Shown here: piece by piece, positions 351 to 5,348 of the stretch
Numbering within the stretch: position 1 is the stretch's first letter
Layout of the letters: each line of letters opens with the position of its first letter
NCBI RefSeq assembly: GCF_041886205.1
Contig: NZ_CP169029.1
Direction: 5' to 3' (one strand)
Origin: Escherichia coli
GTDB taxonomy: Bacteria; Pseudomonadota; Gammaproteobacteria; Enterobacterales; Enterobacteriaceae
Length of the DNA: 64,000 nt
The notes under the pieces: model-generated
What the model was told of the DNA's origin: nothing
Databases searched by the model: none
What the model saw: the letters and a program-made list of their open reading frames with translations, nothing else
Translations under genes and position numbers: made by a program

Positions 351-713
351 ATGGCTAGCGAACGCAGTACTGATGTGCAGGCATTTATCGGGGAGCTGGA
401 CGGCGGCGTATTTGAAACCAAAATCGGCGCTGTTCTCAGTGAAGTCGCTTCCGGTGTGATGAACACGAAAACCAAAGGTAAGGTCTCGCTCAACCTGGAA
501 ATCGAACCGTTTGATGAGAACCGTGTGAAAATCAAACACAAACTCTCATATGTTCGCCCGACTAACCGCGGGAAAATTTCCGAAGAAGACACCACCGAAA
601 CGCCGATGTATGTCAATCGCGGTGGTCGCCTGACTATTCTGCAGGAAGACCAGGGACAATTACTGACTCTTGCCGGTGAACCTGACGGAAAACTCCGCGC
701 AGCAGGTCATTAA
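351..713 (+). CDS. Hypothetical prophage protein (possibly YfdP-like)
   Basis: ORF 165-713; ATG at 351 preceded by GAGGAG at 7 nt spacing; no recognisable domain. Confidence 0.4.
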   Translation: MASERSTDVQAFIGELDGGVFETKIGAVLSEVASGVMNTKTKGKVSLNLEIEPFDENRVKIKHKLSYVRPTNRGKISEEDTTETPMYVNRGGRLTILQEDQGQLLTLAGEPDGKLRAAGH

Positions 714-778
714 TATCGTTCTTAATTAACTGATTATTTATCTCATCACTGAATATCTTTATATAGTGAGGACTTATT

Positions 779-1603
779 ATGTCTCAGAACTTAGACGCAA
801 CCGCAATTAATCAAATCCATGCTCTTATTTCTGCTCAGGGTGTTAATGAAATTATCAGTAAGATTGGTGCCGATGCTGTGGCATTGCCTGAGAATTTCCG
901 CATTCATGATCTGGAAAAATTTAATTTAAATCGCTTCCGTTTCCGTGGCGCGCTTTCCACTGCCAGCATCGATGATTTTACCCGTTATTCTAAAGATCTT
1001 GCAGATGAAGGCACCCGCTGCTTTATCGATGCTGATAATATGCGTGCCGTCAGTGTGCTTAACCTGGGTACTATTGATGAACCAGGTCACGCAGATAACA
1101 CCGCCACTCTCAAACTGAAAAAGACAGCACCGTTCTCTGCTCTGTTGTCTGTTAACGGCGAGCGTAACTCCCAGAAGTCACTGGCAGAATGGATTGAAGA
1201 CTGGGCCGACTACCTTGTAGGCTTTGATGCTAATGGTGACGCTATTCAGGCAACAAAAGCGGCTGCGGCTGTCCGTAAAATCACGATTGAAGCAAACCAG
1301 ACCGCTGATTTTGAAGATAATGACTTCAGCGGCAAACGCTCCCTGATGGAGTCTGTCGAAGCGAAGACCAAAGACATTATGCCAGTGGCATTTGAATTTA
1401 AATGCGTTCCGTTTGAAGGTCTGAAAGAACGTCCGTTTAAATTACGCCTCAGCATTATCACTGGCGATCGTCCTGTACTGGTTCTGCGCATTATTCAGCT
1501 GGAAGCGATGCAGGAAGAAATGGCTAACGAATTTCGTGATCTGCTTGTTGAGAAATTCAAAGACAGCAAAGTAGAAACCTTTATTGGTACTTTCACCGCC
1601 TGA
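779..1603 (+). CDS. YfdQ-like prophage protein (DUF2303 family)
   Basis: 274-aa ORF, same length and context as CPS-53 prophage YfdQ; followed by an HD-domain gene as in the yfdQ-yfdR arrangement. Confidence 0.55.
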
Positions 1604-1731
1604 TTTCATTACTGCAAATGCCCCTGCGGGGGCATTTATGGAAACGTAATTAACTCAATAATCACCGGATGGTGAGAGCTTCCTTTTAGCAGAATTCAGC
1701 GCGGTGCAGCGCATATAAAGTGGAGAACGAA

Positions 1732-2268
1732 ATGTCATTTATTAAAACTTTTTCCGGGAAGCATTTTTATTATGACAAGATAAATAAAGACGACATCGTG
1801 ATTAACGATATCGCAGTTTCCCTTTCAAATATCTGTCGCTTTGCAGGACATCTTTCACACTTCTACAGCGTCGCCCAGCATGCGGTGCTTTGCAGCCAGC
1901 TGGTACCGCAGGAATTTGCTTTTGAAGCGTTAATGCATGATGCAACAGAAGCATATTGCCAGGACATCCCCGCTCCACTGAAACGCCTTCTTCCTGACTA
2001 TAAACGGATGGAAGAAAAAATAGATGCCGTAATCCGTGAGAAATACGGGTTACCCCAGGTTATGAGCACGCCTGTGAAATATGCCGATCTCATCATGCTG
2101 GCAACCGAACGCCGCGATCTCGGGCTTGATGATGGCTCTTTCTGGCCTGTACTGGAAGGTATCCCGGCAACAGAGATGTTCAACGTGATTCCACTGGCTC
2201 CAGGCCATGCCTACGGGATGTTTATGGAACGCTTTAACGAATTATCGGAGTTACGCAAATGCGCATGA
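1732..2268 (+). CDS. HD-domain phosphohydrolase, YfdR-like prophage protein
   Basis: His...His-Asp metal-binding pattern (HAV...MHDATE); GGAG SD 6 nt upstream of ATG 1732 gives 178 aa. Confidence 0.6.
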   Translation: MSFIKTFSGKHFYYDKINKDDIVINDIAVSLSNICRFAGHLSHFYSVAQHAVLCSQLVPQEFAFEALMHDATEAYCQDIPAPLKRLLPDYKRMEEKIDAVIREKYGLPQVMSTPVKYADLIMLATERRDLGLDDGSFWPVLEGIPATEMFNVIPLAPGHAYGMFMERFNELSELRKCA

Positions 2269-2771
2269 ATGTTTTCGAAATGGAAGGATTTCTTCGCGGG
2301 AAATGTGTACCGCGAGATCTGAAAGTGAATGAAACGGATGCTGAATATCTGGTGCGTAAATTTGCTGAAGCGGAGGCCAAGATTTCGGCTCTGTCCGAAG
2401 ACCAGCAGAGAGCGATTGAGTCAATTAAGCAGGCTGATGCAGCTGTAAAGTTGACACACGAGAAGTTTTCGGCGCTTGCGGCGGAGAATGAGCTGGCTCG
2501 TAAGGCAGTTCAGGCATTCTGCGATGTTGTTGGCGACAACACCGAGGTTATCGCTGAGGTGGTTGGGAGAGATGGCGTTCTGGTTATTTTGGAGGCCATG
2601 AAGGCAACAGGAAATATGCCTGCCACCGATGCTTTCCTGACTGAAGTCCGGGCGCATGGCGTGGAGATGGCTATGGAGCATATGCAGTCGAGCGGTTCGT
2701 TAACATTTGGAGATTGCTACATATCACTTAACGAGTTCGCCGCCCAGCTTCGCAAAGGAGGCGACCAGTGA
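2259..2771 (+). CDS. Hypothetical prophage protein
   Basis: 170-aa ORF overlapping the upstream stop; GGAG SD upstream; no recognisable domain. Confidence 0.45.
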   Translation: MRMNVFEMEGFLRGKCVPRDLKVNETDAEYLVRKFAEAEAKISALSEDQQRAIESIKQADAAVKLTHEKFSALAAENELARKAVQAFCDVVGDNTEVIAEVVGRDGVLVILEAMKATGNMPATDAFLTEVRAHGVEMAMEHMQSSGSLTFGDCYISLNEFAAQLRKGGDQ

Positions 2772-3440: not shown

Positions 3441-3450
3441 GGACTAACAC

Positions 3451-4467
3451 ATGACAACGTTCACCGACAAAGAACTGATTAAAGAAATCAAAGAGCGCAT
3501 AGGCAGCCTGGACGTTCGAGACAATATTGAGCGCCGGGCTTATGAAATAGCGTTAGCCTCGCTGGAAGCAGAACCGGTGGCCTGGCTGCATTCAGACAAC
3601 GGCTTAGGTATTCCGGCAATAACCCGGAGTAAAAACATTGCTGACAGTTGGTTATCGAATGGCTGGTATGTTCAGCCGCTATATATAGCCCAGCCAGTAC
3701 CGGTAATTCCTGATGAGGTGTTGTCCGCAATCCGGGAGGTTGCCAGGATTCGCGCCGATTTCGATGATTTTGACGGTGACAGGCGAGGTATCGGTGATTG
3801 TCTGGATGAGGCCGAGCAAGAGCTTATCGTTACCATTAACAAATATGCCAGTCAGTTGGCAGTAGAGCCGGTAGTGCCTGCTGTTCTGGAACGTTTGCGA
3901 ACCATTGTAGCGGACCCACGCGCATTACCTCGCAGAAAAGAATGGGTTAGTGGGCAGCAGTACAGTTACGTACTTCTCGAAAACGTAGAAGCTATGGTTG
4001 ATGAAGCCTGCCACGCTGCCATGCTTCAGGGTAGCCAACCTGTAAGCCAAACTTACAACTTGCCAGAATTAATCGAAGGCATGGAAGTTTCCATTGATGT
4101 AAGCACTTGTGATGCTGATTTAGGTAATCGCTATTTCGGCACCGTCACCGAGGCGTTAGAACTTGATACAGCCAAGAATGGTTACATCCTCCTGGTTCAG
4201 GACGCAGAGCCAAACTTCGATGTAAATGGCAACTCTCCGGGAACTCCGGATAGTTGGATAAGCTGTAGTGATCGAATGCCTGAAAAGGGCCAGAACGTGC
4301 TTATTTCGGTGAATTTCGATAGCTCTCTGGTTGAACCGCTAATATGCTCCGCACGCTATACCGGAAGCACCTTTCGGCGCGGAGATGCAACGATTAAGCC
4401 GGGTAATGGTATTGAGCAAGCAACTCACTGGATGCCGCTACCGGAACCGCCGCAGGAGGTGAAGTGA
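3451..4467 (+). CDS. Phage protein with C-terminal DUF551-like domain
   Basis: 338-aa ORF; C-terminal W-I-S-C-S-D-R-M-P-E motif resembles DUF551; AAGGA SD upstream. Confidence 0.5.
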   Translation: MTTFTDKELIKEIKERIGSLDVRDNIERRAYEIALASLEAEPVAWLHSDNGLGIPAITRSKNIADSWLSNGWYVQPLYIAQPVPVIPDEVLSAIREVARIRADFDDFDGDRRGIGDCLDEAEQELIVTINKYASQLAVEPVVPAVLERLRTIVADPRALPRRKEWVSGQQYSYVLLENVEAMVDEACHAAMLQGSQPVSQTYNLPELIEGMEVSIDVSTCDADLGNRYFGTVTEALELDTAKNGYILLVQDAEPNFDVNGNSPGTPDSWISCSDRMPEKGQNVLISVNFDSSLVEPLICSARYTGSTFRRGDATIKPGNGIEQATHWMPLPEPPQEVK

Positions 4468-5039
4468 TGAACAACTTAATGATCGACCTTGAGACGATGG
4501 GGAAAAATAAGGATGCACCGATCGTTTCCATTGGCGCGGTGTTCTTCACTCCAGAAACTGGAGACATCGGACAAGAATTCTATACGGTTGTTAGCCTGGA
4601 AAGTGCTATGGGGCAAGGAGCTACACCTGACGGCGATACCATCCTGTGGTGGTTGAAACAAAGCCCTGAAGCACGAGCTGCAATCTGTATTGATGATACT
4701 TTGTCGATCAGCGATGCTCTCTCAGAACTAAATCATTTCATTAACCGGCACGCAGCCAATACGAAATATTTAAAAGTCTGGGGTAACGGGGCCACCTTCG
4801 ACAACGTAATTTTACGTGGAGCTTATGAGCGAGCAGGACAAATCTGCCCGTGGGCATACTGGAATGACCACGATGTACGCACGATCGTTACGCTTGGGCG
4901 TTCCATCGGATTCGACCCCAAAATGGACATGCCTTTCGATGGCGAACGGCACAACGCCCTAGCCGATGCCCGTCATCAGGCAAAATATGTTTCCGCTATC
5001 TGGCAGAAATTAATTCCTGCCACCAGCACAGAATTATGA
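4464..5039 (+). CDS. DEDDh-type 3'-5' exonuclease (DnaQ-like fold), prophage-encoded
   Basis: Motif I IDLETMG near N-terminus and motif III H-x4-D (RHNALADARH); start overlaps upstream stop. Confidence 0.6.
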   Translation: MMNNLMIDLETMGKNKDAPIVSIGAVFFTPETGDIGQEFYTVVSLESAMGQGATPDGDTILWWLKQSPEARAAICIDDTLSISDALSELNHFINRHAANTKYLKVWGNGATFDNVILRGAYERAGQICPWAYWNDHDVRTIVTLGRSIGFDPKMDMPFDGERHNALADARHQAKYVSAIWQKLIPATSTEL

Positions 5040-5075
5040 TTTTCCCGGGTGCAGCCGGTTTTGATGGAGAAAATT

Positions 5076-5348
5076 ATGAATACCTTGTTTTTACTGATGG
5101 CTGAATTCAATACCCCTAACATTGAACTCTCAGCAGTTAGCCAAAAGTACTTTGGCATGAGTCCAGCCACGGCAGAAGCAAAAGCAAACGCTTGTAAGTT
5201 GCCCGTTCCAACATATCGCATCGGCACATCACAAAAAGCAAAACGTTGCATCAATATTCAGGATCTTGCGGAATACATAGACAAAAGGCGAGAAGAAGGG
5301 CGTGCTGAGTGGGAAAGGGTCAGAACCCATAAACAAAGGCTCATTTAA
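5076..5348 (+). CDS. PrtN/AlpA-like small DNA-binding regulator (pyocin activator PrtN family)
   Basis: N-terminal MNTLFLLMAEF... resembles PrtN-family proteins; SD TGGAG 8 nt upstream of ATG 5076; ORF-track start 5049 less likely. Confidence 0.5.
   Translation: MNTLFLLMAEFNTPNIELSAVSQKYFGMSPATAEAKANACKLPVPTYRIGTSQKAKRCINIQDLAEYIDKRREEGRAEWERVRTHKQRLI

Follow-up and report, generated by a model that had tools for sequence, protein, structure and literature searches.

Nine tightly packed genes lie on one strand at positions 351–5348 of a 64,000-nt stretch of Escherichia coli DNA (contig NZ_CP169029.1), which we call the window and whose positions serve as coordinates throughout. Which element do these genes belong to, and what do they do for it? 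We conclude, with a probability of about 90%, that a lambdoid prophage of the mEp460/SfV/ST64B/LLS type is inserted in the 5' end of dusA, with window 1–6571 as its right end and 351–5348 as its early-left operon. The gene block itself is an already known, well-catalogued prophage module. As a relative for colinearity we used strain CFS3292, in which position 20001 of locus L001 corresponds to window position 1.

A lambdoid prophage in the 5' end of dusA

When the window is aligned with K-12, identity to dusA runs to ...GCACCAATGCTCGA and breaks at 6572. The dusA-specific integrases are known to insert their elements in the 5' end of dusA and to leave a displaced 5' fragment at the border (PMC4482086). 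Both features, by which a dusA element is recognized according to Farrugia et al. (2015), are present here. In CFS3292, the annotation of this site reads partial tRNA-dihydrouridine synthase. The dusA fragment is followed on its right by a DUF2713 yjbM-type gene and then zur; in K-12, yjbM is directly followed by an intact dusA, and there is no such block at the site.

CFS3292 carries the same right end in a complete 40-kb prophage with dusA and a tyrosine integrase at the opposite end. This prophage is organized in the order dusA, integrase, tail, head, lysis, Q-type antiterminator, replication, cro/cI and early block. The dusA-associated integrase could be located in relatives, namely beside dusA in CFS3292 (L130 10078–11175) and as gp22 in mEp460. 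A total of 448 phage records match, the best ones being mEp460, Lys8385Vzw, 1720a-02 and several Stx phages.

An earlier reading of this DNA (the sequence-only reading) had suspected a phage-derived element integrated in dusA. The junction at 6572, the displaced dusA fragment and the colinearity with the complete dusA prophage of CFS3292 bear out the integration site, while the phage records and the PHROG matches of all nine proteins (see below) bear out the phage origin. The same observations, together with the direct adjacency of yjbM and dusA in K-12, leave practically no room for the idea that the open reading frames (ORFs) form a conserved chromosomal, non-phage locus; no point in its favor was found, and it can be regarded as refuted.

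Two points weigh against our main reading. The window covers only the rightmost 6.6 kb, with the repressor, integrase and structural genes beyond its edge, so that the element could be a remnant; and a terminator (167–213) lies just downstream of the early-left promoter (pL), such that simple derepression may not suffice for expression. The block might be part of a decayed, non-excisable CPS-53-like remnant that is kept because it benefits the host, by stress tolerance or by damped replication initiation. In K-12, the same genes are in fact found within a 10-kb cryptic remnant, and yfdQRST in multicopy inhibits replication initiation and increases hydroxyurea resistance (PMC4776307). However, we consider a remnant rather unlikely, since the nine genes, the operator/-10 piece at the edge, the predicted excision gene and the att junction are all intact, and since close relatives that share this right end are either complete prophages or phages that have been isolated.

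An early-left operon of the LLS functional type

All nine plus-strand ORFs that the sequence-only reading had described as tightly packed and often overlapping were confirmed at their coordinates, with three starts refined (Table 1). Coding sequence makes up 95.6% of the block, with overlaps of 10, 4 and 4 nt in three gene pairs and gaps of 1 to 128 nt between the others. This packing is far beyond chance, and the genes are real. Relatives and PHROG matches led us to revise the starts of YfdR (1732, not GTG 1720), ORF6 (3177, not 3135) and the PrtN-family gene (5076, not 5049). In the case of ORF6, we chose 3177 because the coverage by phrog_1714 (residues 15–101) begins only at residue 15 of the longer version; there is an AGGAG Shine-Dalgarno sequence at 3177.

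Pfam calls were judged against the curated cut-off of each family. Seven of the nine products gave a match, five of them above the cut-off (DUF2303 at 7e-92, Rv2179c-like at 4e-75, PyocinActivator at 4e-23, DUF551 at 2e-21 and Ead_Ea22 at 2e-18), so that the exonuclease, PrtN-family, DUF551 and Ead/Ea22-like genes expected from the first inspection are indeed present. The HD-type matches of YfdR and a YlqD match of ORF4 stayed below. Phage families were taken from PHROG, where all nine proteins found a family (E-values from 1e-40 to 1e-120), and all nine are full length compared with their homologues in K-12, mEp460 and CFS3292.

The resemblance to the yfdP-yfdQ-yfdR region of CPS-53 (KplE1) that had been noticed before is close: the three products are 99.2, 98.9 and 97.8% identical to those of K-12, full length and in the same order. 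Overall, the conserved genes are 94–100% identical to their counterparts in CPS-53, mEp460 and CFS3292, with matching content and order. CPS-53 shares with our element the order and strand (yfdP-yfdQ-yfdR-yfdS-yfdT...torI), a gene for the recombination directionality factor (RDF) that is placed last ahead of att, and an integrase at the opposite end; the N-termini of its YfdS and YfdT are reused here. It differs in its argW site and its IntS/TorI pair, in the loss of most of the phage and in a degenerate leader that is not matched by the covariance model R1 (see below). In contrast, the present element has the dusA site, a PrtN-family RDF, genes for Ead/Ea22, DUF551 and DEDDh exonuclease proteins, and a conserved leader RNA.

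The best-matching isolated phage is mEp460 (NC_019716, gp35–gp25), which covers 57% of window 1–6700 at 98% identity. The identity amounts to 100% for YfdP, 99.5% for the exonuclease and 97% for the RDF, and the two have the leader in common (R1, 109.7 bits). In this phage, gp35–gp25 run from the repressor to the 'excisionase', followed by attP and the integrase. The differences lie in the middle genes between yfdR and the exonuclease gene, which are replaced, and behind the RDF gene, where two small hypothetical genes of mEp460 take the place of the Panacea pair found here.

The window begins with the end of an operator (oL) and the -10 hexamer of the predicted pL. In CFS3292 (L001 19950–20012), two 18-bp operators (ATGTAGGATAACCAACAT and ATGTTGGATATCCTACAT) flank a TTGACA -35 hexamer, and operators of the same type are found between cro and cI. 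The first position of the window corresponds to a point 108 nt past the CFS3292 repressor gene, and this gene, a terminator and oL/pL are directly to the left. As is typical of a pL operon, the co-oriented block thus lies between the CI repressor with its operators on one side and xis (5076–5348) and att (~6572) on the other.

Searches with Pfam and PHROG did not assign any of the nine proteins to a Rec-module family (Red, RecET, Erf, Sak, Gam/Abc). Lambdoid phages that have neither a Rec module nor N, and whose early-left operons are of the yfdP/Q/R type, have been described as the 'LLS functional type' (PMC12315714). Because the Rec module is missing from the operon, we assign it to this published type. 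The operons of LLS and ST64B likewise open with yfdP-yfdQ-yfdR homologues, contain no equivalent of Exo/Bet/Gam, Erf or RecET and are preceded by the same leader RNA; both phages lack an N homologue (PMC12315714). Their leaders carry two tandem units, compared with one here. A single Chi site is found in the 6.6-kb prophage segment, which is too short to judge an LLS-type density, and 16 are found in ~27 kb of CFS3292.

These data can be combined into a model of expression. In the lysogen, a CI-like (LexA/S24-type) repressor encoded off the left edge would keep pL closed. Upon cleavage of the repressor in the SOS response, RNA polymerase would start at ~16, cross the leader and transcribe the nine genes up to the stem-loop at 5355–5390. 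The RDF would then steer towards excision the tyrosine integrase specific for dusA, whose gene is expected beside the restored dusA at the other end of the prophage. The four mosaic middle genes, together with those of YfdP and YfdQ, would serve as accessory 'exo-xis-like' genes.

Table 1. Features of the prophage right end and its junction with dusA
Feature	Position	Strand	Details
oL operator end and pL -10 hexamer TACATT (4–9)	1–10	+	promoter predicted from sequence
structured pL leader	16–350	+	fold -138.7 kcal/mol, z = -5.1 vs dinucleotide shuffles
intrinsic terminator T1	167–213	+	stem 167–177/197–206, then UCUUUUU
branched hairpin, ~105 nt	207–311	+	24-bp basal stem, conserved arm (core 241–267), variable arm
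yfdP homologue	351–713	+	120 aa
yfdQ homologue, DUF2303	779–1603	+	274 aa; PF10065 7e-92; 98.9% identity to K-12 YfdQ
yfdR homologue, HD-domain (predicted)	1732–2268	+	178 aa; phrog_318 1e-110; 97.8% identity to K-12 YfdR
ORF4, mosaic	2259–2771	+	170 aa; phrog_614 and phrog_14548
Ead/Ea22-like	2768–3175	+	135 aa; PF13935 1.5e-18; phrog_1667 8e-58
ORF6, small protein	3177–3440	+	87 aa; phrog_1714 3e-50
DUF551 modular protein	3451–4467	+	338 aa; PF04448 2.4e-21 at residues 268–335
DEDDh 3'-5' exonuclease (predicted)	4464–5039	+	191 aa; PF16473 3.7e-75
PrtN-family protein	5076–5348	+	90 aa; PF11112 3.9e-23; phrog_1300 7e-40
stem-loop, bidirectional	5355–5390		16-bp stem, terminator scan; predicted end of both the operon and the convergent, probable toxin-antitoxin pair
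antitoxin partner	5382–5852	-	156 aa; 4-nt overlap with antitoxin gene
Panacea-domain (SocA-like) antitoxin	5849–6430	-	193 aa; PF13274 5e-20
displaced dusA 5' fragment, 104 nt	6572–6675	-	att junction ~6569–6572; K-12 alignment

The PrtN-family gene as a candidate recombination directionality factor

The last gene of the block had been read as that of a PrtN-like regulator. Its family membership is supported, since the product matches PF11112 with 81.8 bits against a cut-off of 24.2. The regulator part of the proposal does not hold up as well, because an excisionase or RDF fits better. The PHROG family that the protein matches (PHROG 1300, at 7e-40) is annotated as 'excisionase', and the gene is the final one ahead of att, which is the position of torI in CPS-53. 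RdfN, a PrtN-domain homologue, was demonstrated in the Vibrio element IMEVchUSA3 to be needed for excision and to be the RDF of dusA-specific elements (PMC8409611). Furthermore, prtN homologues are found in 60 of 94 dusA islands and co-occur with dusA integrases (PMC4482086).

From the family, the position and the Vibrio precedent, the gene most likely encodes an RDF of the RdfN type that acts with the dusA-specific integrase. It is a small protein with a PF11112 domain that is encoded in a dusA-integrated element, as is RdfN. The characterized RdfN is a 76-aa protein of a Vibrio integrative mobilizable element under AcaCD control (Durand 2021), whereas the present protein has 90 aa and is encoded in a lambdoid prophage by the last gene of the pL operon.

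PF11112 is named for the pyocin activator, and Farrugia et al. left open which role the homologues in dusA islands play (PMC4482086). One might therefore think of a transcription activator for late or lysis genes, comparable to PrtN in the case of the Pseudomonas aeruginosa pyocins. However, it seems very improbable that the protein works in this way. In dusA-specific elements it is for excision that the PrtN-domain homologue RdfN is required (PMC8409611), the PHROG annotation and the torI-like place next to att point in the same direction, and the related prophage in CFS3292 has its own Q-type antiterminator for the late genes. For annotation, the PrtN-family gene should be named RDF, and the element should be described as a dusA-integrated lambdoid prophage of the type without Rec module.

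Predicted activities and the mosaic middle genes

YfdR retains H50 and H69-D70 of the HD motif and matches an HD protein of known structure (PDB 2gz4, E 1e-12). In the Pfam and NCBIfam scans, PF12917 reached 24.6 bits against a cut-off of 25.9 and the NCBIfam equivalog stayed far under its cut-off. Because the Pfam HD-type matches fall just short, which weighs against the assignment, it rests on the identity to YfdR of K-12. The K-12 protein carries the name 5'-deoxynucleotidase and binds DnaA through domain I of the latter (PMC4776307). Given 98% identity, the YfdR encoded here is probably an HD-domain 5'-deoxynucleotidase and DnaA binder as well.

The exonuclease matches PF16473 with 251.9 bits over profile positions 1–177 of 177 and contains all residues of the DxE, D and Hx4D motifs (D8, E10, D113, H163, D168). 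It is 99.5% identical to gp26 of mEp460 and related to PDB 8kel (E 5e-11), a solved phage-type exodeoxyribonuclease of 227 aa. With its motifs intact, the protein is predicted to be a functional DEDDh 3'-5' exonuclease, similar to Rv2179c and T4 DexA.

The genes between YfdR and the exonuclease have a patchwork structure. Residues 1–45 of ORF4 are 87% identical to the N-terminus of YfdS, to which the match is limited, and the rest is a coiled-coil-like module. In the DUF551 protein, residues 1–42 are 86% identical to the N-terminus of YfdT and residues 187–338 are 98% identical to mEp460 gp27. The Ead/Ea22 protein scores 68.2 bits with PF13935 (cut-off 27), and the C-terminal domain of lambda Ea22 is absent from the match. 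None of 5,426 complete E. coli genomes holds more than 75% of the middle region (2200–4500) in one place. The combination is a unique mosaic, although each module of this region was found elsewhere at 92–99% identity. Ead/Ea22 and DUF551 have been reported to act as portable modules in the 'exo-xis-like' accessory region (PMC10834534), and the mosaic at 2200–4500 is typical of it.

For YfdP and YfdQ, structure models were obtained with a mean predicted local distance difference test (pLDDT) score of 91.5 and 76, respectively. Fold searches against a library extending to April 2026 gave no informative structural neighbors for either model. By sequence, YfdQ is related (E 1e-44) to PDB 9o7m, an entry titled 'YfdQ protein' with 36 chains, which implies a large homo-oligomer for a member of the YfdQ family. 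This entry was not among the fold-search matches, and searches by PDB code and by yfdQ/DUF2303 found no publication. In the study of the LLS type, it was considered unlikely that yfdP and yfdQ are unrecognized recombination genes (PMC12315714). The two are core genes of an abundant prophage module, present in K-12 and in thousands of genomes, to which the present block adds a further mosaic variant.

Early phage genes of this kind had been expected from the sequence-only reading to serve often in host takeover or anti-defense. Takeover is supported for YfdR only, whose K-12 orthologue binds DnaA (PMC4776307), and direct support for anti-defense was not found. It is conceivable that at least one of YfdP, YfdQ, ORF4, ORF6, the DUF551 protein and the exonuclease is an anti-defense or host-takeover factor. 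The genes are in the operon that is expressed first, they are widespread (10,812 member sequences in the YfdQ cluster and 493 clusters at 50% identity for YfdP), the middle region is as mosaic as would be expected under diversifying pressure, and a YfdQ relative is present in a 36-chain entry. Still, we consider such a role doubtful: the fold searches with YfdP and YfdQ were uninformative, and PADLOC, which models defense proteins and not anti-defense proteins, gave only one weak generic DEDDh match, to the exonuclease, over all nine. Beyond this match, no specific defense-system protein was found among the nine in the PADLOC and NCBIfam scans.

A structured leader RNA between pL and the first gene

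About one fifth of the enterobacterial lambdoid phages have no Rec module, and members such as LLS also lack an N homologue. For the question of how such phages carry early transcription past terminators, a covarying RNA between pL and the first gene offers a concrete element, and it could matter more than the gene block. The leader here (330 nt) is a mosaic of modules that are common to other phages. Its terminator T1 is retained with hairpin and T-run in 22 diverse relatives, and the stem shows compensatory changes (UA:11/CG:9, AU:12/GC:6 and CG:11/UA:5).

T1 is followed by the branched hairpin at 207–311. RNAalifold with 22 diverse copies yielded 47 pairs, and compensatory changes are seen in 13 of these (basal stem GC:11/CG:11). 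In an alignment of 17 sequences, 97.2% of the cells are paired, as compared with 39–54% when the partners are slid. Compensatory double changes occur in 8 pairs (31 cells), and none of 500 shuffles reaches the observed score. Relatives retrieved through YfdQ were of no use for covariation, being E. coli loci with at least 99% identity. With the covariance model R1, the plus strand reaches 109.7 bits and the minus strand 37.5 bits. This bias and the frequent alternation of G-U and A-U indicate that the element probably acts as an RNA on the plus strand. A conserved small protein across the element was considered and rejected, since the lengths differ by non-multiples of three and the reading frames differ between phages.

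Homologues precede the first early-left gene, whatever this gene is, in numerous phage and prophage contigs, known phages of Escherichia, Salmonella and Klebsiella among them. R1 finds the element once in each phage; K-12 CPS-53, where the leader is degenerate, and the HK022 regions fetched (23.7–31.5 kb) gave no match. There was no Rfam match at E ≤ 1 over window 1–7100. We tentatively propose that the hairpin with T1 before it is a previously undescribed cis-acting RNA that controls transcription or translation of the early-left operon in N-less lambdoid phages (mEp460, SfV, ST64B, LLS and Klebsiella relatives). The element is a candidate for control of early transcription because these phages lack an N homologue. 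It may modify RNA polymerase in a put-like manner, serve as an operator for RNase III or translation, or imitate the anticodon arm of initiator tRNA.

The put RNA of HK022, which acts in cis as an antiterminator, has two stem-loops (~70 nt) immediately downstream of pL and a second copy after pR (putL/putR). Both put and the RNase III hairpin of the lambda N leader are, like our element, structured RNAs just downstream of pL; HK022 also lacks N, and the lambda N leader also has a long perfect stem ahead of the ribosome-binding site of the first gene. However, the RNA described here has a three-way architecture of ~105 nt, is present in a single copy and lies downstream of a terminator, and R1 found no match in the HK022 regions fetched. 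The put model fits poorly because of the position behind the terminator, and an identity with put can be rejected, given that the HK022 pL region shows no sequence resemblance and that a second copy after pR was not found. It should be noted that put-like antitermination was suggested by the authors of the LLS study for their phage, which has no N homologue (PMC12315714).

ST64B, LLS and Kp4866-6 each have two tandem terminator-plus-hairpin units, whereas this window has one. The units have the form 'terminator + long hairpin + GUUGUGG' and were seen in ST64B (L005, ~1180–1500), LLS (L006, ~1180–1500) and a further locus (L007, ~1300–1510). In several of these relatives, a start codon is found in the terminator loop together with a strong Shine-Dalgarno motif (AAGGAGG), and the frame that it opens runs into the 3' arm. 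This arrangement, which the present window does not have, suggests attenuation by a leader peptide in those phages.

Over its 14 nt, the apical hairpin at 243–256 (CGGGCUCAUAACCC) matches the anticodon arm of initiator tRNA-fMet (metZ) without a single difference. ARAGORN found no tRNA cloverleaf in the leader, and the 14-nt anticodon arm is all that is common with tRNA-fMet. The first set of loci had been retrieved with a pattern that contained the apical motif, and a second, independent scan left the apex unspecified. In this apex-free scan, the GGG/CCC stem and CUCAU were kept, while loop positions 6–7 were AA in ~60%, UC in ~27% and UA in ~10%. The variation of the final two loop bases weakens a strict mimicry of tRNA-fMet, which we regard as a lead and not as a conclusion. 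If true, an anticodon-arm mimic could engage a host factor that recognizes tRNA-fMet, namely MetRS (methionyl-tRNA synthetase), the P site of the 30S subunit with initiation factor 3 (IF3), or a VapC-type anticodon nuclease.

The leader also contains a 24-codon ORF at 23–97 (+), MVNAQADARKTLQLLRKRAVRRGN. It lies right after the predicted pL start and has a superficial similarity to the arginine-rich N-terminus of lambda N. This Arg/Lys-rich ORF is not conserved in ST64B, LLS and Kp4866-6 and is probably fortuitous.

Cargo genes and other features of the window

Between the RDF gene and att, the prophage carries cargo (5382–6430) with a G+C content of 0.39–0.40. It probably represents a PanA-type toxin-antitoxin pair with an unclassified toxin: one gene encodes the Panacea-domain antitoxin, and its 156-aa partner had no match in Pfam, NCBIfam, PADLOC or PHROG. 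Other cargo observed at this spot includes YafO-type genes in PhiR40_1 and the two small hypothetical genes of mEp460.

The only tRNA gene detected by ARAGORN in the window is a tRNA-Glu gene at 61135–61210. In the chromosomal part, further stretches of low G+C content (0.34–0.38) are found at 7000–8000, 16000–18000 and 49000–51000, and these may have been horizontally acquired.

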